A stretch of DNA of 64,000 nucleotides, taken from contig RSEE01000001.1 in assembly GCA_003971905.1 (NCBI GenBank), forward strand, positions 930,001 to 994,000. The letters are read 5' to 3'. The notes beneath the pieces are model-generated. The model ran no database searches. It was not told the DNA's origin and saw nothing but the letters and a program-made list of their open reading frames with translations. The translations under genes were made by a program, and so were the position numbers. The stretch is from Moniliella sp. 'wahieum'. Lineage: Eukaryota. Below are positions 3,822 to 58,991 of this stretch, one piece after another (within the stretch, counting starts at the first letter, position 1; the number at the start of each line of letters is the position of its first letter).

Positions 3822-6800
3822 GCTGGCAGGGCAGAGAGGAGGCGGCGGGGGGGAGGAGAGGGCGCAGACGAAGCAGAGGCGTGGCTATATAATCCACCCC
3901 GTGCAGCCGCCACCTGGGGCCGCCGTTTTGGGTGGCAGCCACCTGCGCCCGTCTGCGTCTGTGTGCGTCTGTCTGGGGCCGCAGGGTGCACAGGTGGGGG
4001 CACAGCACACGCACGGCAGCACACAGGCGCCGTGCCCCAGCGCTGCCCTGCGATGCCGTCGGACGCCTGCATCCCTCGGTCCCTCGGTTCCTCGGCCGTC
4101 CCAGCAGTCTCCCCGCAGCTCCCCCGTGCGCCCAGCCGCAGCCCCCTTGCAATCGCCAGCTCCCGCCCGTCCACCTCTCTGATCGGGCTCCTTCCCAGTG
4201 TCGCATGAGGCATGGTTGGATGATGCATGACTTGTGACAGTGTGTCGCATGCCACATGTCATGTGGCACTCGCCATGCGTCACGCGTCACACTCACGATA
4301 CCAGTCACTTGACTAAAACTAGTCAGAACCCAAGCGCCACCTGGCTCTTCTCTCCCTTCAAACGGGGAGGGGTGACCAGGGCGACCGCTGAGCGGATGAA
4401 GGGTGCTGGGCAAGTTGACGGATGCACTGCTCGTTCATCATGCACCATGGCCGGATGCATGATGCGGCCGCGCCAAGAGGAGAGACAGTAAGCGCGTTAG
4501 CGCTAAAAAGCATTGCATAGCGATCGAGTGATCGATGAGCGATGGTCAATTCGATCATCGATCAATATTCAATGGCAGACACCGACCATTGATCGATGAT
4601 CACTTTTCGTCGCATGATGGGCAGGATGGATGATCGATGACGCATGGTGTATGATGTGCATGACGCATGATCGCTGATATCCGAGGATCGATGACGCAGT
4701 GGCCGGCGACCGGTGTCCGGTGAGTGAATCGGTGACGCTTCAAGCTTTTCCAGACGCTATCGACTGTGGAGCTATCCGCGCGTGCGCGTTGCCCACGTCG
4801 GGTGGGGCCCAGCGATACGACCGGATCCCGATTCTGCAATCAGAGCAAGAGGTCAGGTGATCGATAGGGATCGATTAAATTGCTGCTGAGTGAATGTAAA
4901 GACAAGCGAAGAGAAAGGGGGGGGGAAGGGAGTCGGATCTGAGAAGAGAGGGAAGACGAATAGCCGTGACAGCCGTGACTTCCAGATGAAAGAGCGTCAG
5001 AGCGTCAGCGCCGTCAGCTGCCAAACTTTTGCCCTGCTATTCTGTCGGATGGGAGTGATTGGGAACGCTAGTCCCCGGCTATGTTCTTGATACACTGCAC
5101 TGGTGTTCCAACACCGGTACCATTACAAGCTTCACCAGCGGCAGCTTCACCTTTTTCAAGCTTCATGCTTCAAGCTTCACAGCTTCACAGCTTCACAGCT
5201 TTCATCATCGCGCGACCATCCCCCGCCCTCTCCTCAGATCTCAGACCTCACTAGCTCACTGCCTATGGGCGGCGCCTTACAGCACCCTTTGGTATCGAGG
5301 AGCCGGCAACACTCGCCAGTCTGGGCGCCCAAGCCCACACGCCTCACAGGCCCGATCCACACAGTTCGCACGAATCAATCAAACTACTCAAATGTCTTTT
5401 GCTCAGCGCCAACGCCGGCCCGAGCGCCTCAGCTTCAATTCTGATCTCGATCTCACTGGTCGCGAGTCACCAGTCACACATCCCTGGCAACTCTCGGGAT
5501 GGCTATGGCGTCCCCGTCTATGGATGGCGTCCAAAACACCCCGAGACCATCAGAGCCGACACTGACACTGACGCACAACGCCACCCTCTCTCCGCCCACA
5601 GCCATCATGCTCTTGAAGCTAGGTGCCGTATAGATAGCAGCGTATGGCTGGGACGTTGTTCGCAATCATCTGATGATGATGATCAATTGGGCATGGAATA
5701 GCCGTGGGACCAGTGTGGCCCGCTCGCTTTTGCACATGTTCCGGTGGCAAGCTGTGGCTTAAACACTGGGTACTCAAGGATTCACGACCCTATTCCTATT
5801 CTACTGAGTGAATCCAGCACGCCCTTTGCAATGGCAGACCATCCGCAAGTATGGTGGATGGAGCGAGTACGCCCATGTGGGATGCAACGTGCGCGGGACA
5901 GGCGCAGATACATCTGGCCGTTCGCGCACCATCTGCAGATGGTAGTCCACATGTCCACGAAAAGCCTCAAAGCCCGCGACGATAGACGTTGAATGTGAGC
6001 ATGAGCGTGTGCCATGCGTCATGCATCATGCATCATGCGAGAGCTGGTATCATGCATGGTGCATGACGCATGATACGTGCGAACCATAATGCAGTTTGAA
6101 CGTACTTTAACGTTTAACATTGTGTTTTGTCATTTGGCCGTGCGCCACAGCCGGCGCCACAATCCCGATTGGTCGCATGCCCTCCCAGATCCCATGCCCC
6201 AGCCCTGGCCCCACGGGGCGGCGGGGTAAGCTGGGGGAGTTGCGCAGTTTACCGTTTGCGCGTACGGAGTTCCGAAAGAGCACCAAGTGTGGGTGGAAAG
6301 TACTATAATCGGATTCAGTTCGCAATGGTGGAGCGCGTGCTTTTACATGTTCGTAGCATGCTGCCGAGGAGAGACCCCGAGGACACCTCTTATGCACCCT
6401 TTTCCGCACGGCGTTATGCAATGAAGCTGGCCACCTTTATAACTAGAAGCGTTGGAGTCCTGAAAGCTTGAAGCCTTTAGATCTGGGAGTTTGAGAGCTT
6501 GAACTGTGGTGCCCCCATCGACTCAATCATGCATCACGCATTCTACCTTTATCACGGGAACATCGATCATCGATCAGCGTATCAACGTTCAACATCACTG
6601 GTCAGTGACGCGTGACGCGTGACGGGTGTCAGTCACTAGTCACAATGTGAATGCGTGTTTGTAAAGCTTGAAGGTGCGTTGAAAGAGAGCATACGATCGG
6701 TGATCGGTGATCTGGGTGGCTTTGAATTAAACTTACCGCCGGGATAGGCTGTGGAGAGGCTTGCAAGTCGCCTAGGTCGCCTAGTTCGCCACACTATTGG

Positions 6801-8586
6801 AGGGATGCAGCTTACAGCTTACAGGTTCTTGAAGCTTGAAGCTTGAAAAAGGCTTAAGCTTGGGGGACTCGACGAGCTGCTTGAACTGCTTGTTGGCTCA
6901 AGCTTTGAAGCTTGAAGCTTGGCCTGAGCCCTATATGATCTGAGAGCTTGAGCCTTGAGCGCTCGAGCGCTCGAACCGCTGGCTCAGCGCCCTCATCAGC
7001 CTCAGCGCTGGGTAATAAGCGTAACTTGGGATCCTAGTAAGCGCTAAGCTGAACAGCAAAAGCTCGAGTTTTGCGCCGAAGGCTTACATCCGGTAGCCCA
7101 CAGGTAGCGCTTTTCTTGGCCCGGGGTAGCTCAGAGTGCGAACAACGAGCTACTAGCTGCTAGCCACTAGACTGGGCATTTGTGAGATGTGAGATCCGAG
7201 TTGTGACATGTAGAGATCTGAGAATCTGGACTCGAAAACAAGCCCCCCCCCTCGTTCGCACTGGGTTTGCCGGGGTTTCCGGTTACTGGTCCGGTCCACA
7301 GTACGGTTACATATAGAACTGACAGCGGGTATAGCTTGTCTCTATAGGAAGTCACTAGCTAGTCACTAATAGTCACTAGTCACTACTAGTCACTCAATCG
7401 AGGCAGGTGGGAATTCAATATTCAGGAGTAAAAGGCCCAAGGAGAGCTAGGCCTGTGGGAGCGGTGCGAGAGGTTCATGGAAGCCGGAAATCCGTGGAAG
7501 TTCCGGAACACCAGGGAACACCGGGCACCCCAGCTCCATACACTGCATATAGGTCGGGGCACGTGTCGCACATGTCACTGATGGCCGATGGCTCTGTAGG
7601 CCACTGGGGGGTACTGGACCCAGTACCCAATGCCGGACAGCGGACACGCCGGTCAGCCTGAGACCGGTGACCGTCACCTCGCCCAGGGCTGAGGCTCAAC
7701 TACGCAGCAGCAGTCTTATTCTCCCCCTGTTGGAGCCGGAAAAATCAACAGCACGTGCATCTTGCCACAGCAGCCGCAGGCCGCACTGGAGACAATAAAG
7801 CATTGTGTGTGTCCTTTGTCATGCATGCATGGCGTCGTAAAATTTTTATTAGGACGTTGCTCCACAGGGTTTTGTGGGCGTGCCGCTGATAACGAGGAGC
7901 TGCACGATAATCGATAACTAGAAACTAGTAACTACAGCGTTAGAACATAGGGTGCGACAAAATGTGTCTGCACCACGTTCGTTGGTGTATCCACTCGCGC
8001 TACATCCGGGTTGGAAAAGCGAACGACGGTGAAGCTTGAAGCTTGAAGCCAGAGGGCGCCGACTTGCTGGCGACTCCACTGGCCTTTTGCAATTGGGTTG
8101 GCACAACAAGCAGCAGATGCCGGCAGCTCGGTTCCCAAACCACTTCTCTAGGGCAATTAAATTACGTTTTAGAGTAAAGCATTACCAATGGCAAAGCCTA
8201 TGTCACAACGATGAGCCGATGCCATTCTAGGCCGCACATCTCCCTTTGATCTAACCAGCTAGGTGCAATACAGAGGATGGATCACCTGATTGATCATCAG
8301 GAACAGAATCAGGCATGCCAAGCCCGCTGTTGGTTCGGAGCGAACAAAAATGCATACGAGAGGGGGGCAAAGGAAGGAAAGGGCACAAGTAATAACGGCC
8401 CGAACAAAGGGAGAGACAAGGAGGGAAAGGGTCCTAAGCAAAACCCGAAACCCTCGGACTGTGGCAGCCCCACCGGAAGAGGGTCAGGTGACGGGAGTTA
8501 CAAGAAAGGGGCGTATCAAGATTCAGGGAAGTGGGTGGGACAAGCAGAGGGGTAAAGGGGAGCGAAGGGGAGACAATCTGAGCCAA

Positions 8587-10124
8587 TTACTCGTCATCGG
8601 CGGTAAGCCAGAAAGAACTTGCGAGCAAACAGTCGGTGGGCATCTCGACCGCAAGGTGGAAAACGGTAGCAATGACGATGGCCAGCGGTACACACGCAAA
8701 GAACTGGGCTGCGACGATCGCACCGGACCCAGTAGCGTGGCCGGCGACCGACATGTGCTGCCAGATGAGCGGGCCGAGCGATTGGAAAATGGCGCCTTCG
8801 ACAAGGAAGAGGGAGTAGGAGATCCGGCCGAGGAAGAGAAGGACTGGGTTGTTGGCAAAGATAGCACGAGCCGATGCGAACATTTCCAGCAAGATCATCG
8901 CGTTGGCAGCGACAAACCAGTCGTCAATGCGCGGGTAGCCCGTTGCCGAGGGGTCAAAGCCAGTCCAGAGCAAGCCCGTTTGCGAGTTGTCGTGAGCCAC
9001 CCATTCATTCCGGTGGTCGGGGGCCGCGTCGCCAAAGACGTACTTCAGTACCACGCCCACGCACAACCAAAACGCAGGGATGGTCCAAACGGGGACGAGG
9101 TTGAAGAGCTTCTTGGTCCCCAGGGAGCCCAGGTCGTACACCACCACCGCTTCGGCCAAGAAGAGGCCAGTGAGAGAGTAGTAGGCAAAGTTGCCCAGCC
9201 ACCAAGACCAGAGCCAAAGGATCGCACCAAAGATGAACTTGGGATAGCCACGAACGTAAGGGAGCATGATGGCAAATGCGTACACCGAGTACGATTGAAT
9301 AAAGTTGCGCGTCACGGTCCAGAGCACACCGCGGGGCGGGAAGAAGTCCATGGGCACTGTGTTGATGGCGTTCGAGTTGTCAAAGACATAGGCAGTGAGC
9401 GAGTCAAGATAGTTCAGCACGCTCGTCCACTTGGCAGCAGGGGCGACAAAGGTGTTGTTGAGCGCATACGAGAAGGGCGCCGCTGCACCAAATGCGTTTT
9501 GCGAGGCCATGATGGTCACGATCGCCAGGGCAATGGCCAGTGGAAAGAAGACACGGATGGGCGGCGGAAAGCGGCGCCGGCGATGGAGGTGTTGGTGCGG
9601 CGCTCGATAAACGTGTGCACACCGACACGAGCGGCAATGAGAAAGAAGAAGGTGGACTGCAGGCTGCCATCCCACAACAGAGGCTGGAAGACCTTGCGGA
9701 CCGTGCTCTGCCACTTGGGAGAGTGCTCCAGGAAGGGCGCAGGACGAACATTGAACTCGTCCGTGTCGGTTGCGATGGCTGCAGGGGGGGGCGTCAGTAC
9801 TTCGTCGACAAAGGAGGGGGCAAGAGACAGGGACAAGAGACACGTACCTGGTGCCAAAAGACGGAAAAAGGCCCAGAGACAGACCTCAAACGCGATCAGG
9901 CCGCGGAGCGCCTGGATGTAAGGCACACGTTCCGAGTAGGAACGCCCATAATCGTGAGCAGGGTCGTTGGTAAATGCAAAGGGGGTGACGCCCGCCAGCT
10001 CGGCGCTGGTCTCGAGTTTCTTGTACCCCATCTCAGAGATAGGGCCAGCCATGGGCTCGACAGGCTGGGCAGGCACCTGAGGCTGAGCCTCCGACTTCTC
10101 CCGCAAGTTGGAGAGAAAGGGCAT
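8587..10124 (-). CDS. Acyltransferase-3 (OafA/YrhL)-like polytopic membrane protein with degenerate motifs
   Basis: ATG 10124 (MPFLSNLREK). RVPYIQALRGL resembles LDGLRG. Also FFFLIAARV, RRPIR and LGRISYSLFL, with many hydrophobic helices. In-frame intron 9779..9847 (GTACGT/CTGAC/CAG). One frameshift near 9560. Stop at 8587. Confidence 0.75.
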
Positions 10125-12279
10125 AGCGATGGTGGTGGTGGGAGCGAAGGGACAAGGGGTGGTGGGAGGAGGTTGGGGCTGGGGTGGGCTGGCACAGTTG
10201 CGGGTCGCCGGTTGCCGCTCGTGGCGCCTGGGCAGGCTGTGTGGAGTACGTAGGCGGGCGCGGCGCCCTAGTCTGAAATCGGAGACCTGAATATTGAATT
10301 GGCAGGCGCCGTTTCGAAGCACCAACCACACTGGCGCCAGCGCAGCCGCAGGGGCGCTGGGCCGGCGCCGCCTGAAACCAATGATCGATGAGTAGGTGTG
10401 GGTACCGGTGATCTAGAACCGGTGACCTGATGGTGCAGTGACGACGGCTAGTGACCGGTGACCAAGTGACCTGTGATGCCTGTGATTGGTGATTGGTGAC
10501 CAATTCAATGGCTTGCGAGCATGATGCTCGATGCATGGTGATCGATGTGACCTGTGACAGGTGACCGGTGACCGCTGTTCACAGATCGATCATCGATCAG
10601 CAGGGAAGTGATTTGACTTGTAATTAAAGGGATTAGTTTTTTACGGCTTCGTTCGATCGGGATCGAGTGATCGATGATGGATGGTCGGGAAATTGGCAGC
10701 CTCGGCTAGTCCTCCGTACTTGTGCTTGCATAGTTGTTGCCTGTTGTTGCCTAACAAAGGTCTAAGGCCTCCTGAGGACACTCAGTGCACGATTCTTGGT
10801 TGATGTCCCCCACATTTAGAACAGGTGGTTTGCGACCCCTTCGGAAGCGGTACAACATGTTTTTGTACGTTCGTCGACGACACTCGTTCACGTGCGCACG
10901 ACGGCAACCGCATGTTTCCCCAGCCACACCCTCAATTTAGTCATCGATCGGTAATCAATACGTTGGCCATCCACTATCCGCCGCAGGGCGAAGGCCTAAG
11001 ACGTGATTAAGATTGTTCAAATCTTATCGCACCAACACAGCCATCAAACGCCCTGTTCCGCACGGACATTGAACGTTAGCGTTGAACGACGTTGAACCTT
11101 TAGTTCTCCTCCATATGGTCGCTGCTTTCTTTGGCCTGGCATGGCCTCCCTCACGGCCCCGGTGCTGACATGCTACCGTGTGCACGCACCGCGAGCGAGC
11201 ACGCTGCAGATGGTTTACAGGGGAGTGGTAAATGTGGACTCGTATTGCTTAGCGGTTAGCCCCATGGGGAACACTGTCATTCGCATTGCGAAGACAAAGA
11301 AAAGTCGTCCGAATGGTTGATGGTCGATGATTGATGCACTCTTCGATGGTGCCGCACAAAAGGGAGGCTGGTTGGCGCTCTCTGTTGTGGCACAGGTGTG
11401 TGCCATGCAGTCCCAGTCCCGTGGACAGATGGACGGACGGCGTGACGCACCACACGAGAGATGGCTTCAGGGGGCTTACGCTCTAAGATGGTATAGAACA
11501 GTGCAGTAGCAGTGCTTGGCACCTTAGGCTTGAAAGTCTAAGGCGTAACGCGTAAGGCGTACGGCTAGGATGGAATATGAAAACTGTTTGAGATTTAAGG
11601 CAAAACTCCCCGGTGAGCGCGCGGCTGAGCCAGGCTGAGCCTCAGCTGAGCGCAGACGCATGAGATATGATCGATGATATCTCGGAGTGTACCAGGGGGA
11701 GGGCGACCAGGGGGACACCCGGGAGAATGGGAAGGAAGAGAAGGGGGTGGTCGCTGATCGCTGATCGCTGATCGATGAAGCGCTTGAGGGGGGCATTGGG
11801 GTGGCTTAAAGCTTGGCGTGATATGTGACGCGTGACGCAATTAGATCGATTATCGATTACATGCAAGAAGATTTGTGGCGCCTGCCGGTGTGCGCGGCGC
11901 CAGGCAGGTATCATGCACTCATGCACTCATGCATCGCAATCGGTACTCCGTATTCAGAACGCAGATCATCGATCGCCAATGCGTGCACCCTGGATTCGGA
12001 GGCCGCACGCGTGACCAGGTGGGATTGTGACTGGTCGGCTGGGCGTTGGTGTTGCATGCATGATGTGTGGAGCATGATGCATGACAGGCCAGCACCCTGG
12101 TCGCACTGAGCTGCACGCCACCAGACTGCGCCCATGCCCACCTGCGGGTGCTCGCCCTCCGCCAGCAAACCACCTATCGCGCTTTGCTCTTCAAAACCCA
12201 GGTGCTGCTCATCTCTCCCACCACTACCCCACCACCATCTCCACCGCCTCTCTCCGGCCTTCCTGGGACTGCCGCAACG

Positions 12280-13816
12280 ATGGGAATTGGCCAGCAACTT
12301 GACCGCGCGTCCAACTGGATCATCGGGTGTATGTCCTTTCTTCCTCCTCCCCCCCCTTCGGACTGAGAAGAGCTTGAAGTGCTGACGAGTGTGGCTGCTG
12401 CTTGCAGGGACACCCATTTCGTTGATGGTCACCTATGCCGTCTTCAGTGTCTTTTTCTACATTCTCATCCCCCCAGTGCTCAACTCGGCGCTGTGGTACA
12501 CCTACATGGGCATTCAGACTTTTGTCGTCCTTACTGTCCTGAGCGAGGCCATCTCTTCCATTCGACCCAATGTCGAATCCCGCCGTGCCCGTCGCAAGGT
12601 TGCCAAGGTCGGCTTTCCCGATCTCGACGGGGAAAAGAATGAGCACAAGTGCCCCAAGATTGATTTGGTGCTCGTTGCGTACCTGCCCAACGAGCAGTAC
12701 ATCATCAAGCGCCAGATCCGCTACGCAATGACCCAGATCGAGTATCCTGCCTCGCGCCTCACCATCAATGTTGTCTACAACATCCCAAGCCCATTGAGCC
12801 CCTGGAGACGGAGCTGAAAGAAATGACGAGTCAGTACGGTCACCTTAAGGTCATTTCCGTCCCCCTCCACCTCCAAGGCCGACAACATCAACTACTTCCT
12901 CTCTCTTCCCTCGGACTCGGAGATCATTGCCATCTTGACACGGACCACTACCCTTCCCGCTATGCCCTCAAGTGGGTTGCCCGCGCATTCAACAAGGGCG
13001 ATGTGGACATTATTCAAGGCCGGTGCTGCATCTACAACTACTCGGAAACCTGGATCACCCGCTTGATCGCGGCCGAGTTTGACATGATTTACGGTGTGTT
13101 TCACCCAGGGCGTGCTCGCTCGCACCGCTTTGGCCTGTTTGGTGGGTCGAATGGGTACTGGAATGCGTCGTTGCTTCGTTCGCTGGGAATGCAAAAGCAC
13201 ATGCTTACGGAGGACATTGACTCGACGCTGCGTGCGATCGTGTCGGGCGCGCGGATCAAGTACATGCTAGAGGTGCAATCGTACGAGACCGCTCCGGAGA
13301 CGGCCATGGCGCTGCTCAAGCAACGTATGCGCTGGACCCAAGGTTGGTTCCAAGTCACGCTCCGCCACGCCATTCCCTCGTTGCAATACGGTGCGTACGG
13401 TACAATTGACCCATCGGCGATGAGCACCAAAATCATCTCCCGTGCCGGTCTTTTTCCTACTGGTCTTCCGCGAGGCCTTCTTCTACTTCATCTCCCAACT
13501 GTCGGCACTGCTCTTGGCCAGTTTTGCGGTGCACCCACCGCATCGCTGGCACGAACTCTACCAATCGTTTGAGGGGTTCAAGATCACCGTCTGGCTCTTT
13601 GTCCTGAATGCGATTTGCATCATGACCGCCACGGGCATCACCGCCCGCAACCGGAGTGAGTTCACCTCTATCTGGGCTATCATGGCGTTTGGCATTCTCT
13701 CCCCTACCTACTACACCATTGTCACCTTCATGTCGATCACATGCCACTTCCGCGAGTTGGTGCAATACTCCAACTGGAACCCTACCTCACGGTCGGCGCC
13801 TAAGAAGACGACGTGA
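12280..13816 (+). CDS. Processive GT2 glycosyltransferase (D,D,D,QxxRW type polysaccharide synthase)
   Basis: ATG 12280 (MGIGQQLDRASNWIIG). Intron 12329..12407 (GTATGT/CTGAC/CAG). Two N-terminal TM helices, then VAYLPNE, SKADNINY, DTDHYP (DxD), FGGSNGYW, LTEDID and QRMRW, then C-terminal TM helices. About four 1-bp frameshifts (~12785, ~12865, ~12935, ~13455). Confidence 0.88.
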
Positions 13817-16800
13817 GCTTTCGTTTGTACTCTTTTCTCCCTTGTCCCTGCCTCCGGTCTCTCTTGGTCACCGGTCCTCGACCTATCTGAAGAGCCAGCC
13901 ACGGCCGATTTCCCCTGTTGCCTCACACGGTACATTGCCCCTTTTCTGCTCCGTTTTGCACGCCTTTCGTTTCCCTTCACCCACCCTGTCTCAATGAACC
14001 CGCACCTGCTCTGTATATCTATATGCCTTTTTCGTTTCTGGTTTCGTTTTGCCTTAGTTTTCTGCTCCCAGCTCGGCCGGCGTAATTCTCTGCACTTTCT
14101 CTGGCCCTTCCCCTTGTCGCAATGCCAATATCGCTTGCGCTATTGCGGATGCCGATTTTGATGGGCCAGGACGAAGCGCTCCGCTTCTTAGGGATCTCAG
14201 TTCCTCGGCTCCGCCGAAGTACTCACTCTGGGCTCTCACCGATCTCATCTCAGATCTCACAGCAGCTATGATATCGATCATCGTCAACATCCGCCACTAC
14301 CGGCCCTACCTCGCTATAGCCACGAGAGTCACTAGTCACTAACCACTAGAGGCACCTAAAAGTCACTGTGACACAGTCACCGCAGTCCTCACTCTCTTTG
14401 TTCGTCCATCGCTGCAGCGATGGTGCTCCGACCCAAGGCCAAGCGTTAATCTTAGTGGTTGCCCCTCCCCGCCCCCCCTGAGTGAAAATAAGGCCCACAC
14501 AAAAGTGCATAAACTGCCGTCTTGTTATCGGATGGGCGCCGGGACGTGCGTTCGCATGTTGGCACATGTGACTAGGGACCTCCGCCCACCCCCCGGTTTA
14601 AATCGAGGGCGGGCGTAGTGGAAGGGGCCAACGAGTGTCACTTGGTAGGTGGCGCGTGACGCGTGACGCGTGACGCAGCAATCCGGTTACTGTCACCCTT
14701 GCTTGTGTCAGACAGCGCGTGACGCGTGAGGAGCTCGTTGCAGGGTATGGGGGTACTACCATCACAGTCATGCCTCCCCATATCACATGGTACACCCCCT
14801 CTTCTGCCGGCACCCATGTGCGCAGTAAGCGATAGGGCACGCCGGGGCCGGAAGGCGCCCTCCAGGTCCGGATCTCCGGGATACGGGCGATAGAGCCTTG
14901 CGGCGAGCCTGCCGCAATGCGGTGGTACGCCTGGGTCTGGTACGTCTGGCCCAAGGCTGCACGGCTGTGCAATCATATACTCTTTTTGGTAAAATATTCA
15001 AAGCACGAAACGATGATTCATCTCCTTGAGATCCGAGGGATCTGACACCGTCTGCTCATTTCGTGCACTCTATGGAAGCCATTTCGCCTCGTTAGCATAG
15101 CAAGTTCAATCTTCTACCGCCACTTCAATGCTCCGTCGTCAAGCCTCAGCCCATCGGCACGCTCTTACTCCCCCTGAGATGTCCAGTACACGTTCTCGCC
15201 CACCGTCTCTTTAATCTCAATTCTCTTTCATGGCGCCACACCGTCGGTCCGGATCACTTCTCAGTTCATTCAACGTGGGGCTAGACGATCTTAAGCTTAT
15301 TAACGTCAAAGAAGCATCTCATTGATGACATGTGCGCGTAAAATAAGCGCTACCCACCAACTACACGCACATGGTTACAAGACAGTGGGTAAATCTCATA
15401 CAACAACAACATTAGATCCTAAAAGAGGGCCCTAGTACCTCTCCTACTGTGCATGTGGGAATATATGAGTGAGAGCGCTCACATGGCGCTCACAGGAGGC
15501 TCTAGGTGTCACACAGTCGGAGCTAAGACGAGGGAGACCAGAGTCGAGACTAGGCAGTAATAGTTCGTGGGGGAGGAGCAAGAGCAGAGGACATGATCCG
15601 AATAAGCGGGAAAACGGGGAAGGAGCGAGACACTAGAAATTGGAAATCGGAGCGAGATCAGCCAAACGATGGCACTAGCGCCCCGCACGTTTGGGGAGTC
15701 ATGCCCCCCCGTTCCTTACTTGTTACAAATGAGACAGCGAAAATGTGTACGATGCTTCAGCGGTGGATCTTCCAATCAGTACTGAGTCAACGATCGACCG
15801 GCACAACACTACTTCACATATATACCATTGCTCGGCACGTTCAAGCTTCAAGCTCTCCGTCTCTCGGCATGATGCGGCAGCACCTTTATACTCATCTCTG
15901 AGATCTGAGCCCATATTGCTTCGCTCTTGGAACAATAGAGGACCGAACCGTACCCCCGCGAGACTAGATCAAAGAGAGGTTAGAATCGAGCGCCGTTGAT
16001 TATACTCTTGGCCGGAATAGGCCCTTTGACCCATATTTGAGCGCGTTGAGCTTCAAGCGTCTTCAGAGCTTTACGCCACTGTTGATACTTCGGCAGCCGT
16101 TCAACGTTCACTAGTCACTAGGATCACTTGAGCGCGTTGAGAACTGTTTGCAATGGCCGTATGTCTGTGAGAGGACCTTGGGTCGCTCTACATATCCGAA
16201 AAGGCTCACGTGGATATATACCTCAGTACAGTCAGAGATTGAGTAGCGAAACCCCCACTTTTTATGATGAACTCATCTGTACCCACCGCCACACAGTACT
16301 CCGCATATTAGTATGCAAGATCCACACAGAAAGTTCATTCAATCGAACGGTAGCAACTCGTCGAATAGGGAGGATGTGTTGGTACCCGAGCACGAGATGC
16401 ATGTCGCGGTCATATCCGCTATGCATCTTAGAACATCCCATATCAGCTCCGCGGCACCTATATCATGTGCCGAGACTCCTGCAATGATGAGGTGCATATA
16501 CATGTGATAATGGGGCCTGATGGGGGATGTGGAGCCAAGTGTGATGGTGCCAAATGGATCCCATCTCTGTTGCCCCGTAGTCTTTGGCCAACAAAACTCT
16601 CGTTGCGGAGACTGGTTGTGGAGAGTCACAATAACTCACACCAGGTTGTGATCACTCTGACGGATATATGATGCGGCCAACTGTGACATGTTACACGCGC
16701 AAGTTTGTGTATAATCATTGTGACGTTGGTACTCCTTGCAGAGATCCCAGACGTGAGTACAGAGTGCGCGCGAAGCATGAGGGTCTATACAGTGGTGCGT

Positions 16801-18441
16801 CATGTGTGCGCGCTGGGCAAGTAGGCACATGTCGTGTGAACAGGTTTTTAGTAGTGTACAGCCTGTTGACGTAGTTGTACCGTTCTGTGAGATCGGAGAT
16901 GCAGATCCTCTGTATCTGCCTGTTTGTTGTTGTAACATATGGGCGCGCACATGAGAGTTCAACGTTCACGGTTCACGCGCACGCATCATGCCACATGTGA
17001 TGCATGTGAGCGCCGAGGTTGAGAGATCTCAGATGGCAGGCCGGTGACTAGAGTGACTGAGTTGCAAGGAGAAAGGGTGTGGGGATTGGAACGATTGTTG
17101 GGCGTTCAGCTCAAGGGTAAACGTTAAAAGTTGAACGTTAATGAGACCGCCGATCGCGTCTCTGTACAGCATCCGAGCTTCGAGCTGTGAGGTTGAGCGT
17201 TGAGTGTTGAGTAGTGTTGAGTGCGATGTTTTGAGACCCCGAGAGGGTAGGTGTACAAATCGTTAAACGTCAAATGTCGAGAGCTGCCCGGTGGGCAGCA
17301 ATTGTATAGTAAGGCTTTTCGGGAGCCGAGGTAATCGGTTTGTCGCGGGGGCGTCTCCTCCTGTCTCCTCTCGGTGTTGCTTTTGATCGGCTGTGCTACG
17401 CAAAAGGGTTGGCCCGACAATGCGTCCGCCGTCTCCAACGCCAGAGGCACCCCAACCACACACAACTCGTTGGAATCCCGAGTCGGCACTTCTCAGGGTT
17501 TCGTTGCCGCCGCGCAGGGAGGACTTTGTTGTGGCTCTGTACTATGGCAGCAGCTCCGCTCCCGGGGTAATTTGATGTGCTTGCCGGTGCGCCACATGAG
17601 GAGTGGGATATGTGCATCCTAATGTGCGCTTATATATGCGCTACGCCGCTGGCGGTGCAGAATCCCTCTCTGGCACCGGCACGGCCTGCGGCAGCCAAGG
17701 CGCAGCAGAGCGCAGCCCGCGGTTGGTACCTGCGTCTGCAGCGGTGCAGAGGCGCAAGCAAGCGCCCAACACCAACACTGTGGGCCTGCGGAGGCTGCCG
17801 TGGCCCCTCCACCGGCCACCCACGCCGCACTGCAGCTGCCAGGGCGGGCGCTGGGCGTAGCGCGTTGGGCTGGGCACTGCCGCTGTGCCCGCCTGCAGCA
17901 GAGCGGCGGGTGGTGCGTGGGGGCCGACTTGCGAACACCCCGTACAGCCAGCGACAGAGAGGCGCCGTGCGCCAATTTGATGCGCTCGCTCTCTGCGGCT
18001 CAGCGCACTAGTCACTAGTCACTAGCACTGCTCAGCGCTCACCGGTCACCGGCCACCGCAAGTCCTCTTTCCAGTCACCCCTTCGATGCATAGTCAGATC
18101 TCAGACACGGGGGCAGCACCCCAGTTCCTAGGCCCTTTTGTTATACGTTCACCGCTTCTTGCCTGGAGAGCTTGGTGAACGAAGGGTGCCGGTGAGGCCG
18201 AGGCGCACAGGACACGCTCAGTGTGGCAATCCATGCCCACTATTTCATCTCATCCATCCATCGCCCCAACCCTCCCTCCACCTTCCGCCCTCCACCCTCC
18301 TCCCTCGTCTTCCCTCTTCGTCACTCTTCTTCTTTCCTTTGCTGCCCGGCGCAGCCGCTGCTCGTTGCCCTTCCCTTCCTTTTTCTCTGTTGCCCCATCC
18401 CTCCACCAGCGTTCCGCCCCTTCCCCCCCGCCTCCCCTGCC

Positions 18442-21400
18442 ATGGCCCACTCCCTTTGGGCGCTGGCCGCCTTGGCCATGCTGGTGGGTGCACCTGCCAT
18501 CCACGCTGCCTGTGAGTGTGGCTACCGTGATCCCTCAACTACCTCTCTCTGGACCGACGCTGTTATTACCTACTTTAACGAGTCTGCCGCTGCCACCGAC
18601 ATTGTCTTTGAGCCGGCGCAGTATGCAGACCGCTATGGCCGCGACCAGCCCGGCGAGGCCGGCACGGGTCAAGAAGCATGGATTGGAAGCAACCGCATCA
18701 ACGAATGGGAGGACGACTTCTCCGCCACCTGGCGCTCCGCTGTGGTCGCCAACAACACCCATCTTGGTGCGAACCACTCGGGTCTTCTCATGGATGTCAC
18801 TCCGGCCGACATCAAAAACCGCATCAGCTGGGGCAGCCAGCTCCAGACCCGCCGCCGTGACATGCAGTACGGCTCTTTCCGCACCATGCTCAACCCTCCC
18901 CCTGGGAGATACATGGCTGGGACCAACCTTGATGTAGAGGTGGCGTGGAACCAATCCGAGTTGATTCGCACGGCTTTCTTCAATACCAACCAACCAGGCC
19001 AAGGCAATGTTCAAGTCTCTTACTCGTCCAGCTCCGAGTCTGTTACCCCCTTCCTCTACAACCAGTCCACCATGGATCGGGGCGGCATCAATGGGCTCGA
19101 GTACCGCATGGACTGGCTGCCCACATCTGTTTCGTTCACCAACACGGGCGCCAACACCACCTCCAATGCCAAGATTTGGTCGGGCAAGCATGCGCACCCC
19201 CCGAGTCGTGGAGCTCCTTTCTCGTACAAGCACTGGTCCAACGGTTCCCCCACTGCCTCCCAGGGCCCCCGATCGCGAGCACCGTTACAGCTCAAATCAT
19301 CTATGCTCGTCTCTTTTTCAACTCATCCCGTCCTGAACGCTTGGAAGCGTTCAACTCGGCTTGCGCGGCTAGTTCGGCTTCTGCTGTGTGCTCCACCGAC
19401 GACCTTACCCTACGTGATAGCACACCCTTTGACCTGGCCGCGACTCTCAAGCCGATTATCCCGCATCACAAGCGTCACGTCCCCGTATACTCAATCTACG
19501 GTGCGGCCATCTCGGGCGGAATCTTTGTCGTGCTTACGATCCATGCGTCCCTTCGCCGGATCAGGAACACGCGGCGCAAGCGCGCTGCATTTTACGAGCA
19601 GTACAACAAGGAGATTCACGATCAGCCCGATCCCCTCCTGGAGGCCGGGCCACATTCCAGTACCAGTATGTCATCGACAGCATACTCCGAGGTGGACAAG
19701 CAAGTATTTGACGAGGCAATGACCAAATGGGACGATCCAACCATCTTGCTGGCTGAGGACGAGGATGACTCCGAGTCGATCGCTTCGGAAGACATGGATG
19801 ATGAGAATGAAAAAGCAGCCGAGGCTTGGGGGTACAGTGGCGTTGAGAATGGCTCGGTCTACTCGATGCAGACCAATACCTCGGGATACGTTCTGCCCCA
19901 TATCCAACTCTCGCGCCAGGATCTCAACAAGTCAGGCATGCTCACTCCTGCCTACCCTTCCTCTGGTGGATCCACCCCTGCAGGCGTGGCGACATCGTAC
20001 AGTCCCAGGAGCGCTCAAACCCCTCCCGTTTCACACTTCCGCGCCCGCTCCATCCCGTCGATCCGGGGAGGAGGGGTGTATGGGTCTACGACGGCGGCCA
20101 CGTCTCTTGCCTCGTTTGGGGGTGAGGACGGTCTGGGTCAACCGCCATCGCTGCCGCATGTGGCGCCGACGGTGATCTTGGAAGATGGTTCACAAGCACC
20201 AGTGGCTTGGGTCACACCTATTGCCGATTGGGCCCCTGCACCCAAGGGGGACCGGAGGTCGATGGCACATGGGCTTCTTGCCAACCCACCCACAGCCGTC
20301 GCGGCTGAGGATCAGCAGGCACTGGAAGCGTACGAGCCCACGTCCATGTGGGGAAGGATCAAGTCGGCTCTGTTTGTGTCCAAGGGTCAAGGCAGGGTGA
20401 CGGCGTCGGGCGCGGCGCGGGTCGAGTATCTCGACGGTCTCCGTGGGTTTGCATGTTTCCTTGTGTCCCTCCATCACTTTTGCCTCATTTACGAATACGG
20501 TTTCACGACCCAGCCTACCGGGTCGGGAGAGCACTACAAGTTTGAGTACTGGATCTATAAGATTTTGGGTCCTATCCTTTGCAACGGTGGGCTGAACGTG
20601 GGCATCTTCTTTGTCCTCTCGGCCCGCGTGGTGTGCAACCGGTACCTATATCGCGGCAACTTGCAGCATCTTGCTCAGCTCGTGCTGACCCGTGTTCCGC
20701 GTCTGAGTGTAACGATCACTGCTGCAATCCTGCTCAACTACTTCCTCATTGAAGTGGTACGTTGAGTTCCTCCGTTAATTTGCTCAAGAAGGGACTGACA
20801 CTAACCAACCTTCCGTGGTACAGCAAGCGTTCTACTGGACCTCTCGTCTGGCCTCTCGCACCTTTTCGATTTGGTCGTACTACCAAGATTTCCAACACGT
20901 TGGGCGTGTTCATTGATTACTGGCTCAGTCTGTGGTGGATGCAGCCCCCGTCAATTACACCTATTGTTACGCATTATGCAACGGGTATCCTATGGACCGT
21001 ACCTGTGATCGTCCAGTGCACATGGACTTGCGCCCTCTGTGCCCTGATCGCGCGTGAGATCAAGAGTCCAATCAAGCGGTACTTGTTCTACTCGGCTTGC
21101 ATCCTGCTTACCTGGTGGGCCAATCGGTTTGACTACTTCTTCTTGGCCGGTCTGCTCCTTGCCGATCTAGACGTGCGCTTCCAATACCGCCAGAAGTTTG
21201 GCATTGCTGGTGCGCTCCTGGCTTGGTGTTTTCTTCCTTGGCGCTGTGCTCACTTGGCTCGACTATGCGAAAGTCATCGACGTGCAGAAAGAATGGGGCA
21301 TCCATCCCAATTTTACAAGCGGTACACCCAACAAATGGGTTGGATCGACTCAGGCTTGGTACTTGCCCAAGCTCACCGATGGCATCTTTGTGATCTCCTT

Positions 21401-21717
21401 TTTCTTGCTCTGCGATCTATGCACACCCGTGCGCGTTTTTCCAACTGCGTTTCTGGAACGTGTTTGGTCGCAACGCATTCTCCCTCTACCTCTTGCACGG
21501 TGTCGTCTTCTGGTCGGTAGGCGCGGCGGCCAGTCTCAAGATGTTGGCGGCCGGCATTCCATATTGGGCTGCGATGATTCTCAACTTTCTTCTTTGCTAC
21601 GCCATGCTCCTGGTCGTCTGCGAGCTGTTTACACGCACGTTTGACCGCTGGGGCACCACTCTCGCCCGCTCCTTTTTCCGCGCCGTGTCAGGTGGACTGG
21701 GCCGGCGCCCCACCTAG
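18442..21717 (+). CDS. Fusion protein: signal peptide, GH16-like (ConA/beta-jelly-roll) ectodomain, TM helix, Ser/Pro-rich linker, acyltransferase-3 domain
   Basis: MAHSLWALAALAMLVGAPAIHA followed by ACECGY. RRRDMQYGSFRT, EYRMDWLP, HWSNG and SQGPP are typical of fungal GH16-like proteins. TM YSIYGAAISGGIFVVLTIHA. AT3 motifs RVEYLDGLRGFACFLVSLHH, FFVLS, GILWTVPV and FGRNAFSLYLLHG. Intron 20757..20823. Frameshifts near 19268, 20890, 21230 and 21440. Confidence 0.82.
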
Positions 21718-27424: not shown

Positions 27425-28465
27425 TAACACCCATTAAGGTCGACATTCTCCCGCACTCGGTCGTTCGTCCATACGTATCGGCAGCTGTGCGAAAGGCGCA
27501 GGAGTCGGGCCTATCAAGCTCGGATGGGGATGGTGGGGACAAGAAGGCCCACCAGGATGCAACCGACTTGGCCGACGCGGCCAGCGACGCGGCCGGTAGC
27601 CAGAGCAGTGCTGCAGAGATTGGCAATGACCGCCTCGCCTTTCTCACCACTCCCGTCCTGACCGAACTGGAGCTTCTTCACCCGTTCCAGCATGAGTGGT
27701 CCAAGATCCCACGGCTGGGGCGGAACGGCGCGCAGCGGCTTGTGCCAAGGAGGCCTTGCTGGATGTGCCGCTGACCATGGTACAGGACAAGACTCGGTTG
27801 GCGGTTGGGTATGCTGAGCTTCCGCCCTGGACACGCGTGGCGGGTGGCGGGGACGTTTTCCAGGCCGGTACCGAAGCGCCGGGGGTGACGCAGGCGGGCA
27901 AACACGCGTCAGAGATGCAGAATGGGGTGGTGGCGGGGCTGTAGGCGTGTTGTTCGCTGCTGATCTGACCAGTGGCTTTTCCATGGGGAGGAGTGACACT
28001 GTCGCATCACACGTGTCAAGCAATCGATATTCTCCGCGACACTCTGATGTAGGGATGATCGATGATGCATGATGTATGATGGGGCACCAGGAAGCACTGC
28101 GCACGCTGGTGGATCGGTGAGCGCTGAGTTAGTGTGACATGTGGCATGCGAATGTTGGCCTGGGGTGGCCTGTGGGCCCAGCAGTGGCCCGGCGCTGCCC
28201 AGCGTCCCATGCGCAACGCAGGCTAAGATTAAGCGCTGGGGCTATAATGGTGCTTAGCGCCTCCATAGGTCATCCTTGGGGGCCCACGCACACCGGTCTG
28301 GATTGACCCCGCGGATCGCGGCGTCCTCACTGCGAACGCTCCATCGACGCGTCCAGTCCGAACGCTCAGGACGTCTGCTGGCTGATCAGCCTCCGCCCCA
28401 GCCTTGGTGACATCCGCCTCCACCCTCTCTCTGCCCGCAACTGAGACCAGCCTGTCTACGCCACC

Positions 28466-33387: not shown

Positions 33388-33410
33388 TCTGTGTTGCTTG
33401 ACGAGTTTGC

Positions 33411-33466
33411 AGCTTGAAGCTTGCAGCTTGAAGCTTGCAGCTTGAAGCTTGAAGCTTGAAGCTTGA
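33411..33466. repeat. Tandem heptamer array (AGCTTGM) x8
   Basis: AGCTTGA AGCTTGC AGCTTGA AGCTTGC AGCTTGA AGCTTGA AGCTTGA AGCTTGA, read directly. Confidence 0.95.
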
Positions 33467-39051: not shown

Positions 39052-39084
<33 letters not shown>

Positions 39085-39612: not shown

Positions 39613-40929
39613 GTTGGGCAAAGGTTGTAATTCGAACTGTTCTCTCCTTGTTCAGGAAAGAATCAATCCAAAGGGGTGAGGGGCGAAGCGGAAGGTGGCT
39701 GCAACGGAATAATCAGTTAGCATCGGCATTAACGTCCGCCGCGGAGAGGGAGTCGATCATGGGAAGCTTGGCCGAGGAGAAGAGGCATAGAGAGTAAGGG
39801 CAGAATACGCACCTGGGTGGCGGTGGTTAAGGAGCGGATCCTTGGAAGAAGAGAAGGAGAATGCGGGAGCGCCGCGCGGCTTAAAGGCCACCCATGCGGG
39901 TTCGACTAGCAATGTGAGGACCGGCACAAGGCCAGTGCTGACAGAAAAAAGAGAATGCAAAAATTTCAGCTGAGTAGCACTGCCCCTCTGCAGTGACAGC
40001 ACTAGAACACTATCACATATGAGCCGCAGCATGGTATCGGAACACTTCCCCCCTGCCATCAGGGTTTTCATATTCACATCGTCGGCACCTGCTCAGCCTG
40101 AACCTCAAGGCTCAACTCGTGTTTCTGAAGTTTGATGGACCGCACCTGAGCCTCATCGATCGTGATGCATGATATCGATCATTGAGCTAGTGGTAAAATA
40201 GAGCGTCCATTAAAAAACGGTCGGAATGATTAATGATGGTGGGTCAACATGAACGTTGAAGACGTTGAACGTACTGAACGACATCCTGTGAATGTGAGTG
40301 GCCAGGTCAGCTGCACAGATGTTCAAGGATGACGTCGATTTCTCGATGACGTAGAAACACATCTCGCAAGCGGTGACCGGTGAAGCTTGAAGCTCAAATG
40401 GCGGGGCCTGAATAACATCTTTGCTTCATCCTCGCGGACGAAGGGCCCCGGTTTCCTTTTGTCAAACACGTCGTAGTCTCACTGTAGACAGGTAAAAAGT
40501 TGGCCAAAATACAAACTAGAGGTATCACGCCCCCCTACATCTTCCTCAAGTCGGAGGGACCATCAAAGAGACTTGCCCTTCGAGATCTAATGGGATCGTC
40601 ATACGAACCAAGAAGCAGATCGTGAAGAAGACGGCGCTGGCCAGGTGTACGGATCAGATCGATCCGAAGGAAAGCTATGATCGTCTTTGCTGGCAAAGGC
40701 CTGCTGCCAAAAACCCGGCTTGATGATTGGATCATCTCCCTGGACAAGCTGGACACCGAGGACGCAGATAATATCCTATGGGATTATTCTCACACAAGGC
40801 AGAGGCCAGTGGCTTTGATCGCGAGATATTGAAGTACGTAGAAGTCGTGAGAAGAAAAGCCACAACAGGAGTTGATGGCTGTTACACAAAAGGAGCTTTG
40901 AGGGCAAGGGATTCCCTCGGCACGATCGA

Positions 40930-41689: not shown

Positions 41690-42092
41690 CGCTGTGGGCG
41701 GCAGGACAGCCTTGGCTCGACGGGGCGGTGGGGATGCCGGCAGCGGAGACGGTGGATTGCTCCGCACCCCATCTGGCCGACGTGGCGCACGACAAATCAG
41801 CTAACGCCATCCATTGGCCGGCGCAGCGGAATTTCACATTTCAGCTGTCCACGTGTTATTAGTCAGCCGCGGCAGCCAGCCTGAGGCCCCTGAGGCTCAT
41901 CGCCTCCGCTGAGGTGGTGAGATCTGAGATCTGAGACTGAGTATGCGGAGGGTAAAACTCGGGATTCGGAACAACTCGGGCGCGACAGGTTATGTAATTC
42001 CAGGTCGCGTGCTGCCCGCGTGTTGGCGCCACCAATTAATTTGCTCGCCATCCCTTGGGGCCCAACCGCCCGACCACCGCCCCCCCCCACCC

Positions 42093-47642: not shown

Positions 47643-50070
47643 GTGGCGGAGGCTGCTTTCTCTGCCTGTACGGACTCTCGGCGAGCGTGGGGACTCGGAA
47701 TGATTGAAATGCACTGATCTACCCAAACTCGCTAATGCTACCATCTTCTTTCTGTTACTCTGCCATGAGATCTGGTAACCGGTAACCTCAGCTTTCCCAT
47801 CCGCCGAGCCTTTTAAATTTGAGCCATGCCTTACCCACCGGCCGCCACCTGAAGGGCGATGGGGAGGGTTTGTCCGACCCGCTCTCAGACAGTCGTTTAA
47901 ACTAGGATGCGCCCCTCTTCGCCTCTCGCAACGTCAACTTCGGGGACTGCGGACCCGCCCTGAGCTTGGAAGCACCACCTTGTTGGGTGGCACCACCCCG
48001 AAGAGACTCATCTCGAATCAATCATGCCCCGACACCTAGGCATCGAAGTCTTAGGCCTTCACTATGTGAGTGGGAGCGTACAGGTACTTTTAATGCGCCG
48101 GTGAATCGAGCAGCATTGAGTGCTCAGATTCTCTGAGCCTGACCCTGGCCGGGACCTCTCGAGGATCAGAACTGTCATGTCAGGTTGAGAGCGTGAACAT
48201 GGTGTGCACCGAACCTCTCTCTCTGGTATCTTTGAGCGTGTGGCCACGGGTTTATTGGGAAGCATGCCGTGGAATTTTCCGCGGGTATTTAAAGACGCTG
48301 GAGAGGAATGGGGACAGAAAAAGTTATAGATCACTAACAGAGTCGTCTTCATCCAGGTCTCCCAATGATAAAACCGTACATGTGATCTCGCAAAAGCACC
48401 CGACTAACAGCAGAGAGTGTGGTTTACCACAAGGTCGATGAGCGGCGCACCTAGGATTTTCTTCTTTCTTTCCCCTAGCCGTGACGACACAACGAGGGCA
48501 CTATGCCACCAAGACTGATGAGAAAATGTATGGGCCACAGGTGGCTTTCAAAAGGGGTTTCTCTCGTCGGAGGTTCAACGACTCACTCACAGCTCAGCAT
48601 TCAGCGCCCTCACATGCAATATGTCCACTATGCTGATCATGATCCGTATCTATTCGCGCTACAGTCTGTATGAAAAGGAGAATGAAGGGAGCTAAATAGA
48701 GATGATCCCGACCTGTTGGTTATTCCATCGGTCGCCTGATTTTGGGTGTGGGTGCCCAGCTGAAAGCAAACACTGGTCAGCGAGAGCCTGATGCTGAGAT
48801 GTGGTAATATAATACCAACTGGCGAAGCGTTTCTGATGTCTTCTGCTATAAAAGAAGGCTTGCGCATAGGTTGCAAACGCTGCTTCCGTAAAGGTAAGGA
48901 CAAAGAAGTACGTTGTGCCTATACTAGGATCGTCCATCCGGCGCGTGCTACTACTTCCTATAGTCCCAACAACGCAATACAAACGCCAGTGGAGGCCGCG
49001 AGCAGGTCGGGAGACCCTCTTACTCCCGCCAATCGCTCTTTGTCCAAACCAGACGTAGCGCGAGTGAATACGAATGAGGGTAGTATAGTGTTGGTGGTAC
49101 TAGCTTAGTACCCACGTCTCTGTATGGCCAGGGGGAAGAAGGACTTTTGAATACGTTCCTGTGATACTTGGCTGTCTTAACACCTGGGGGAGAACCAACA
49201 CTCCTTTTTTTCCCGACGCCTTTTTTCTACACAAACACAGTAGAGAGACGCGTGGCGGCCACAATCGTCTACCACCTTCCGGTATGCAACTATGCTGGCG
49301 TCCCTCCCCCACAACGCCTCTTCTTCCTCCACAGCCAGTTCAATGAGAACATGGATGTTCCGCCTGGAGCGCACAAGTTTGGGGATCGACTCCTTCCGTG
49401 TATGAATTGAGCCGAATATGTGCAGATCTTGCAGATAGTATCGATCACCGAGTCACCCGTCCAACTAGTGGCGAGTGACGTAGTGACGTCACTTACGGCA
49501 TCTGCATCACTAGTGATATTGATAGAGATAACTGGTAACCGGTAACTAGCAAAACCCAGTAGATTTTATTGCAGCGTTTGCCTTTGTTTTGACTTCAAGT
49601 GATCTAGTGATACACCCTCGTCCTCGTGGGAGCTGTCCTGCCAACGCCTTTTTATGGCTTGGACCAAGATTCGCAAGCGTTCTGCAGAGGCGTGGGTATG
49701 GGCATTGGGGCTGCTTGGCCGGAGCGCCCGAGCATCCCCTCTCAGATCTCACATCGAACATCCCCACGAGGTGGTCCGAGCAGCTGACAATTAAAAACGG
49801 TAATTAACGTGGTAACTTTAACCGGCAGCCACTGGCCACTGGCACCGACACTGGCGCCATGCCTGCCCCGAAACAGCTCCGCCGGTTCAGTAATACATTC
49901 ATTCACCGCTGCAGCCGCCGGCAGACGGAGGGATTAGATTACTAGCCTCGCAGGCCCACCAGTCGAGAAGAAGGCAACTGGGCCATGCTATGCTATAGGC
50001 TAGAGAAGTACTAAGGTGCCATCATCTTCCCGCTCGGCTTGCTTCCTGCCACCCCCACACCCTCTTTCGT

Positions 50071-57820: not shown

Positions 57821-58991
57821 GGTGGTGGTGCAGGCTGAGCGTTGAGGTTGAGGGTTGAGGCAGGCAGATGTAGGGCGGCGGTGATGATGGATGAGGGGAG
57901 GCGATGCGGAGGGAGAGGGCGAATAAGCACGTGGGAGGACTGGGCCTGCTGGGGCCGGTTGGCGTTGTGCGGCGGCCGGTGGTTGGGCGGGTAATCACCG
58001 CGGTGCCTGGGCGCAACCAGGAGGAAAAAGCATTGAGTGCAACTGTGCGGCTGCGACTGATTGCAGTGGTAAACGTTAAACGCTGAAGAGTGAAGCGTGA
58101 AGATTGAAGATTGAATATTGAAGATTGACGCTTCAACTTGGCTGTAACTGCAACGTACCTTTCTTTGATCCGCCCGCCTCAGGCTGGCCAGCCAATGATT
58201 TATGACGCGGACTCAGCCGCAGCCGGCTGCTCCAACCGGGCCCAGCGCTGAGGCACTGCGGCTCAGCGCTCGTCCGACCTTCAAGCTTCACCTTCCGTCC
58301 CGCGTCCGTTGCGCGTGTCCGCCTGAGCTCAACTCGTTCTCAGGACTAGTCAGTCCACGGGCTGATGGGGACCAGGGAGGGACTGCCGAGTGGCGCGTAG
58401 CGAAGTGACTACTGTGACTTGCGAAGCTTCCGAGTGACTCGTAGCTCTCGTGCCCAGCGTTGCTCCGAGGCGGCCGCGCCACCCACCGGCCACGGCCACG
58501 GACCACCTGCCTCGTCTCGCGCTCTCTCCCACGCACCGTGCATGCTGGCTTGCGCACCATCCACACGGCGACGAAGCATCCGTCCCCGAATGTGACGTCA
58601 ACCTTCAAGCTGCACACATGAAACGGCTGCTCCCGCACACCACGACAGGAGACACCTGCGCCCAGCCGCATGGCGCTTGGCTGGTTGGGCCGCCCACAGT
58701 TCCGCTTCGGCCGTCCTAGTTCCTAGTCCCTAGCTCGCATTCATGCATCATGCAATCATGCACCCCAGCACACATCCCATCCCACCCTGGCCTACATCCC
58801 CCCCCATCCAGTAACCACCAATGTACGTCTGCCCGCCACCCATCCGGCCTCAGAACCACTGCCATGCCATCCATCGCCGCAGATACAAGTGCTGGGCTCG
58901 TAGCTGCCAGTCTATTCGTAGCGCCCTCTCTCCCCCGCCGCTGCTGACAGAACGATCCCATTCAACGCGCAGGCGGCAGACGCACGACAGG

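Follow-up and report, generated by a model that had tools for sequence, protein, structure and literature searches.

What kind of process writes one rule over and over into non-coding DNA while changing the letters each time? The question is raised by the window analysed here, the 64,000-nt stretch at positions 930,001–994,000 of contig RSEE01000001.1 (C1 in the assembly numbering), where a sequence-only reading had noticed T-N-A triplets alternating, with a period of 7 bp, with interchangeable 4-bp palindromes. The motifs it named are present in all 16 of the coordinate ranges that it quoted, although two of the arrays are less regular than described: the one at 33411–33466 has TGC for TGA in two units, and the one at 7351–7392 has extra bases between units. 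The pattern is a real, genome-wide and precisely ruled mutational scar. With a probability of roughly three in four, we read the scars as excision footprints of a transposase that forms hairpins on flanking DNA and uses a 7-bp target centred on T-N-A.

Palindromic scars in the window and the genome

The window contains 239 10-mers of the form T-N-A-N4-T-N-A, and 108 of them have a palindromic core, with 15 of the 16 possible 4-bp palindromes represented. Windows simulated from Markov models of orders 1–4 (20 simulations each) had on average 5.5–9.0 palindromic cores and never more than 14, and 20 simulations at order 5 gave a mean of 16.9 and a maximum of 28; the enrichment over background expected by the sequence-only reading is thus borne out. 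The 108 matches form 46 clusters between 4221 and 58750. The two N of the flanking triplets are identical in 93 of the 108 and complementary in 8, so the triplets are direct copies and not mirror images, and we rejected a model of inverted duplication in which the second N would be complementary. Among 112 period-7 runs, 56 are self-complementary except for one central base; by our reading of the list, 55 of these are centred on T-N-A. The earlier remark that each TNA is a stop codon on one strand is true of the letters.

The same scars occur throughout the genome. A 17-base array of three TGA triplets and two AGCT cores is matched 2,280 times across the assembly and its reversed control 0 times, and scar density in 170 kb from two other contigs equals that of the window. 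The 69.5-Mb assembly carries the window region three times, on C1 (the window), C4 and C16. In the 524 kb made up of the window and C4 we counted 504 scars, about one per kb, with all 16 palindromic cores present. Scars common to aligned positions of two haplotypes amount to 479 gap-free instances, both alleles counted. The genes of the window are fungal; for its GUF1 frame, proteins of Ustilaginomycotina are the closest (Tilletiaria anomala as the best named match, 53%; another relative, 86%). Among at least 120 metagenomic loci matching a 24-base array, none displayed the wider grammar, with at most three further motif matches per locus.

Within the window, the scars are absent from exons. 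The coding set comprised the 15.1 kb of window reading frames that are conserved in other haplotypes; none of the 108 palindromic 10-mers lies in these frames, compared with 13 of the 131 non-palindromic ones (Fisher p = 0.0003), which upholds the earlier by-eye impression that the arrays are rare in coding exons. Selection against frameshifting insertions probably explains this absence. Between genes, scar density depends on orientation: 2.0 per kb between divergent genes (74 matches, 15 intervals), 1.44 per kb between tandem genes (133 matches, 42 intervals) and 0.37 per kb between convergent genes (18 matches, 13 intervals), with orientation taken from crude codon-based calls by a caller that misses genes.

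Allele pairs and scar geometry

C4 and C16 match the window at ~68–93% identity, in conserved stretches only, and differ from each other by 3.16% substitutions (12,695 over 402,377 aligned columns). They therefore served as a natural before-and-after experiment, with 417 kb aligned from 460 and 470 kb of DNA. Indels were kept if they had ten gap-free flanking columns with at most one mismatch on each side and lay at least 25 columns from an alignment end. These clean indels peak at 7 bp (81, versus 46 at 6 bp and 33 at 8 bp). Nineteen of the 81 are primary events that fit one rule exactly: the short allele is plain ab-TNA-cd, and the long allele is either ab-TNA-b'a'ab-TNA-cd or ab-TNA-cdd'c'-TNA-cd, where primes denote complements. 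Another 9 duplicate the TNA with an imperfect core (most one base off, by inspection), 23 are gains or losses of a unit in rule-fitting arrays, and 2 are tandem duplications of another kind. The corresponding two-overhang rule is also obeyed by some primary events that are not 7 bp long: 1 among the 46 indels of 6 bp, 4 among the 33 of 8 bp, 4 among the 32 of 9 bp and 1 among the 16 of 10 bp.

Because the core of the long allele is b'a'ab or cdd'c', the palindrome is a copy of the two flanking bases; and since the short allele does not contain the two inverted bases, the first unit cannot stem from slippage. The suspicion of the sequence-only reading that ordinary slippage would not suffice and that a hairpin-type process is involved therefore stands on the 19 primary events, while the process itself is narrower than the "hairpin or template switch" it had in mind. 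Among palindromic-TNA repeats matching over 5–6 bases, 19 of 267 are polymorphic between the haplotypes, compared with 5 of 1,039 comparable 7-spaced repeats lacking TNA (p = 7e-10), which argues for gains and not generic slippage losses. New scars arise at ~0.2–0.4% of the substitution rate, that is, 29 primary events (58 when array changes and, in part, the 7-bp near fits are added) versus 12,695 substitutions.

The geometry of fixed scars follows the same rule. We tested a joint grammar in which TNA is followed by i letters of cdd'c', j letters of b'a'ab and a second TNA, and counted each class (i,j) in the 524 kb at sites with unrelated flanks, against shuffled sequence; one site may fit several classes. 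Classes (4,0) and (0,4) were each found at 161 of 733 sites (27 in shuffled sequence) and class (2,2) at 30 (1.8). The longer joints are rarer: (4,1) and (1,4) reached 25 and 27 of 336 (1.4 and 1.3 shuffled), (4,2) and (2,4) 11 and 12 of 457 (0.4 each), and (4,3) and (4,4) 1 of 260 and 1 of 267 (0.03 each). In these 8–11-bp forms the 7-bp NN-TNA-NN duplication is preserved in full, and inverted bases separate its two copies. Direct copying stops two bases away from TNA: agreement with the upstream flank was seen at 52 of 61 sites for one extra base and at 23 of 55 for two. For three and four bases it fell to 2 of 10 and 1 of 15, for five and six to 0 of 15 and 0 of 19, and for seven it was 2 of 75. 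A hairpin tip two bases past TNA with two bases inverted accounts for 560 of 749 sites (both strands counted) versus 60 in shuffled sequence, and 79 of 93 cores in the window are copied from their local flanks.

T-n-A alone serves as the centre, with a weaker signal at four near matches. In the centre scan, the fraction was 560/749 for T-n-A, 38/207 for CnA, 22/176 for GnA, 28/186 for TnC, 35/190 for TnG, 7/111 for AnA and 8/99 for TnT, and 2–6% for the nine remaining centres. No further target preference beyond T-N-A was detected in 205 scars. Fold-backs of 1 or 3 bases, the analogues with a period of 5 or 9, were at or near background. We also gave up a model that paired a 5-bp duplication with a 2-base fold-back on one side, as the +8 to +11 classes fit a 7-bp target. 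The scars combine an exact 7-bp duplication centred on T-N-A with bases inverted from one flank or both, which points to hairpin breakage at two ends once the target had been duplicated. Dimeric cut-and-join enzymes produce just such a symmetric target with a fixed stagger.

Individual scars in the window (all on the plus strand) illustrate the longer joints. A +9 scar of class 4,2 at 29876–29891 carries two copies of the 7-bp target CA-TTA-AC, separated by two bases that are inverted from the end of the left copy; its counterpart of class 2,4 at 34621–34636 repeats GA-TCA-CC around two bases inverted from the start of the right copy. The +11 scar at 15477–15494, class 4,4, holds two copies of GC-TCA-CA, between which lie inverted base pairs taken from each of the flanks, and is the sole case of its class with unrelated flanks among the 267 sites examined. 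Two +8 scars lie at 5246–5260 (class 4,1, in which one base of the right target copy is added to the left palindrome) and 49598–49612 (class 1,4).

Chains of 1, 2, 3 and 4 units occur 316, 65, 14 and 4 times (399 chains). Adjacent units share a core in 80 of 105 cases and differ in 25. A second hit at a scar would be expected to give a mixed core a quarter of the time; mixed cores in 20 of the 65 two-unit chains fit this 25% expectation (p = 0.32), so that repeated hits account for the interchangeable cores. In the window, the mixed array at 28056–28072, with TCGA followed by TGCA on one TGA lattice, is the product of two separate events at one site, not of slippage; a second plus-strand mixed array, CCGG then AGCT, lies at 40374–40390. 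The longest array, with eight units of AGCT core and two decayed TGA, occupies 33411–33466. Pure two-unit arrays are found at 6830–6846 and 8030–8046 (both AGCT), 14657–14673 (CGCG) and 41918–41934 (GATC), likewise on the plus strand.

The densest scar field of the window, 19 matches with cores including TGCA, TCGA, CGCG, CTAG, AGCT and GCGC, spans 6019–8046. Clusters with 11 matches at 4221–5243 lie upstream of a minus-strand gene at ~1901–3815. Twelve matches fall in the divergent promoter interval 10288–12084, between a minus-strand gene at ~8590–10150 and a plus-strand glycosyltransferase-2 gene at ~12260–13815; its syntenic counterparts contain 23 matches in C4 and 27 in C16, with mostly different cores. 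Adjoining acyltransferase-3 and glycosyltransferase-2 genes at 8587–21717 have paralogous pairs on C4 and C16. The window also holds a dispersed repeat of ~165–185 bp at 15512–15676, with TG..CA-like ends and many genomic copies, which is probably a solo long terminal repeat (LTR), and a short pyrimidine-rich stretch at 60022–60088 that matches 30-bp-period tandem arrays on several other contigs. As for the assembly at large, three syntenic copies, two of them ~3% apart and the window copy far more diverged, would fit a hybrid, a polyploid or a mixed assembly. The two close haplotypes further differ by a 4.5-kb inversion (C4 ~581000–585500, C16 ~543550–548000) and in the number of degenerate 30–42-bp coding repeats that fill ~10 kb of one gene (C4 ~317000–327000, C16 ~254000–264000).

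Origin of the scars

The before-and-after sequences, the 7-bp limit, the two-base inversion, the T-N-A specificity, the absence from exons and the promoter-side bias are direct observations. From the scars we reconstruct a sequence of steps in which each unit would record one visit of a cut-and-paste DNA transposon, or of a transposase acting alike. Attack on ab-T-N-A-cd with a 7-base stagger would duplicate the site. At exit, both flanks would be sealed as perfect hairpins with their tips exactly at the ends of the duplication, and, by analogy with Artemis, a host nuclease would open these hairpins two bases from the tip to give the 4-base palindromic overhangs cdd'c' and b'a'ab. End joining would mostly drop one overhang and fill the other, leaving TNA-palindrome-TNA and a net gain of 7 bp; less often, parts of both overhangs would be kept, giving +8 to +11. 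Since every scar would provide two fresh T-N-A targets in DNA that is already accessible, the arrays could grow and their cores become mixed through later hits, probably with some help from slippage.

Our best guess for the enzyme is a candidate EnSpm/Transib-related (CMCT) transposase. Polymorphic insertions in the 417-kb alignment comprised LTR elements, a family resembling short or long interspersed nuclear elements (SINE- or LINE-like) and an element with CAC..GTG ends and 2-bp duplications; in Pfam, 30 frames from polymorphic insertions returned LTR-retrotransposon domains only. Members of the SINE- or LINE-like family, which have their 3' end in common and whose duplications vary, make up many of the C4/C16 polymorphic insertions. 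One frame of the CAC..GTG element retrieved nothing above 0.80 in an atlas search, and a Tnp2 profile weakly matches a different frame of this element (E 0.00026). A loose first look with the MULE transposase profile PF10551 gave no candidate, the KDZ profile PF18758 gave no match, and the hAT transposase profile PF05699 gave 0 matches where its control likewise matched nowhere; all three are weak negatives. PF02992 (Tnp2) matches two genes, on C17 (E 1e-12) and C34 (E 7e-4), which are at most candidates for the enzyme. The C17 gene (~556930–557980), which has a syntenic copy on C62, is fixed in two haplotypes, and its first catalytic aspartate is apparently replaced. The Tnp2/EnSpm-like gene on C34 (~513260–516870, minus strand) is single-copy, lies between HAD hydrolase and sugar-phosphate transporter genes and has scars in its flanks. 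Its frame has a profile match of 97.8%, and by our reading of the alignment candidate D, D and E motifs are distributed across a frame break, maybe an intron or an assembly error. It is possible that this gene is a domesticated transposase.

Several results weigh against excision as the source. No resident element with a 7-bp NN-TNA-NN duplication was found among the polymorphic insertions of the 417-kb alignment, and an inverted-repeat scan of 994 kb (1.4% of the assembly) yielded no such element, its 18 matches all being scar arrays by our reading. A guessed element-end pattern, whose letters may be wrong, had 127 matches; none of the 60 far ends checked had the duplication. A handful of active copies would probably be enough to produce the 29 primary events observed per 12,695 substitutions, and failure to meet one in 1.4% of the assembly is correspondingly weak evidence. 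The polymorphic elements with CAC..GTG-type inverted ends, at C16:523454–533034 and C4:848725–852470, make 2-bp duplications and have no Pfam match, and no clear inverted ends or duplication were seen in 10 kb around either Tnp2-like gene. The 7-bp length on T-N-A, itself deduced from the scars, differs from the duplications of 5 bp given for Transib (PMC1131882) and 2–5 bp given for the CMCT clade of EnSpm, Transib and Plavaka (PMC12730594). Of the 81 indels of 7 bp, 28 lie outside the rule. Extension is seen in about 21% of chains, versus 4–5% of promoter-side TNA sites hit, so hot spots or slippage would have to contribute. An odd-centred three-base core is slightly raised (27 vs 15), and the core class b'a'd'c', which a snap-back model alone predicts, stands above its null (9 vs 1.5).

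Some of these points would suit an origin without any mobile element, in which the fold-back and the re-copied 7 bases arise at T-N-A itself, either through a nuclease (of the host, or domesticated) or through template switching during replication; one such route would be a nick beside T-N-A, a snap-back over two bases and a restart a few bases back. The scans made found no resident element, the snap-back-only core is in excess, a one-ended snap-back predicts the main +7 classes equally well, and the C34 gene, with its candidate D, D, E residues, sits amid host genes without inverted ends; human DNA, moreover, shows local inversions from short template switches (PMC5453318). A one-ended fold-back does not account, however, for a direct copy that stops exactly two bases on each side of TNA, nor for inverted bases from both flanks, as in the scar at 15477–15494 and one polymorphic 4,3 event. 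Three-base versions of the snap-back are at background (1 vs 1.0), and other loop triplets are not used. We consider such an origin unlikely. Slippage of ordinary microsatellites, favoured by slipped-strand hairpins, would explain the 23 unit changes in existing arrays, the 80 of 105 adjacent pairs that share a core and the existence of long pure AGCT arrays. But 316 of the 399 chains are single units, and the 19 primary events have only 5–6 matching bases, with no inverted bases in their short alleles. The core changes between neighbouring units in 25 of 105 cases, and the +8 to +11 classes obey the flank rule. As the origin of the scars slippage is therefore very improbable; it can at most extend arrays.

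The sequence-only reading had also raised a structural or protein-binding code, and a selected code of promoters, read by proteins or chromatin, would be in keeping with the highest scar density lying between divergent genes, with some syntenic promoter intervals that are scar-rich in all three subgenomes and with uneven core use, from 1.8-fold over to 9-fold under expectation. As an origin this idea found no support, and we regard it as highly unlikely: all 16 cores are in use and are mostly copied from the flanks, the syntenic intervals of the diverged subgenome have other cores at other places than the window, and substitutions are nearly as frequent in scars (158/4,670, 3.4%, a figure biased down by choosing perfect motifs) as in their flanks (660/16,626, 4.0%). 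The promoter-side bias would rather reflect insertion into open promoter DNA, although single scars may later have been co-opted, e.g. by transcription factors. Finally, an artefact of base calling or assembly could be suspected, since the assembly looks noisy: C4 and C16 differ by 2,478 one-base indels, 1,552 of them beside the same base, which suggests long-read noise and counts against the excision reading as well. The scars, by contrast, are common to separately assembled haplotypes at aligned places, decay by ordinary substitutions, avoid exons and track promoter position, and we are nearly certain that they are not artefacts.

Beyond the excision of a hairpin-forming transposase, a wider proposal can be made only tentatively, and we hold it doubtful as a whole. 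A RAG/EnSpm-related lineage with an unreported 7-bp NN-TNA-NN target, possibly acting from a domesticated gene without inverted ends, may long have written tens of thousands of promoter scars while leaving almost no resident copies. Each scar would renew its target, a self-feeding source of tandem repeats and new palindromic promoter sites, and the same process might account for the 10-bp repeats of Ustilago maydis.

Significance and comparison with known systems

Excision footprints are normally seen few at a time. Extrapolated from 504 in 524 kb, the assembly would hold ~67,000 scars, which would make footprints a main source of new non-coding sequence. Across the genome, the scars would document in a natural setting how a fungus opens hairpins and joins ends. 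They would show the birth of tandem repeats without slippage as a possible route, indicate a RAG-type enzyme whose target length is new, and supply a rule against which the unexplained 10-bp repeats of smut fungi can be tested; their significance would grow if the enzyme proved to be a new or domesticated RAG-like lineage. In the literature covered, which fell short of most subscription papers, we found no published description of the TNA-palindrome rule, and the supplementary family data of PMC12730594 may bear on whether a 7-bp CMCT duplication is new.

PIF/Harbinger elements use a three-base target with T and A at its ends, much like T-N-A. The canonical Harbinger duplication is 3 bp (PMC12730594), compared with 7 bp plus inverted bases here; the copy extends two bases on each side of TNA, and we set aside a 3-bp duplication as a model, no search for Harbinger families having been made. 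Short template switches, which generate quasi-palindromes, produce local inverted copies in one event (PMC5453318), for which the abstract describes no fixed length or target triplet; the geometry of the scars is fixed and two-ended. Among published observations, the nearest to our scars are the 10-bp repeats between genes of U. maydis, which have been read as past transposon footprints (PMC4081816, citing Laurie 2012 and Schirawski 2010). By their description they resemble our scars as small intergenic repeats of a smut fungus with a 10-base unit; the passages on them describe no mechanism, variable palindromic core or allele comparison.

Further parallels are transposases of the hAT, Transib, RAG and Muta1 types, in which hairpins form on the flanking DNA (PMC5499845). 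Like the scars, hAT (Ac/Ds) excision leaves palindromic insertions, and the hAT7 families of rust fungi make 7-bp duplications (PMC12730594). Ac/Ds footprints, however, are palindromes centred on the complement of the element-bordering base, that is, odd-centred, with one or two dominant in a fungal host (PMC5873905), whereas the scars are even-centred (560 vs 78 shuffled); odd-centred models, at 27/878 vs 15 and 2/728 vs 1.3 shuffled, were rejected. The likeness to V(D)J joints with P nucleotides, of the RAG/Transib type, is closer: flank hairpins, opening two bases from the tip, even-centred palindromes and up to about two added bases. Artemis opened all 17 tested hairpins mainly at +2 (PMC2175297). 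The scars differ from RAG/Transib products in being genome-wide, at about one per kb. As in those joints, their added bases are the reverse complement of the flank end and even-centred (560/749 sites and the 19 polymorphic primary events), and both flanks contribute around a duplicated target of fixed length, at 11 (4,2) and 12 (2,4) of 457 sites.

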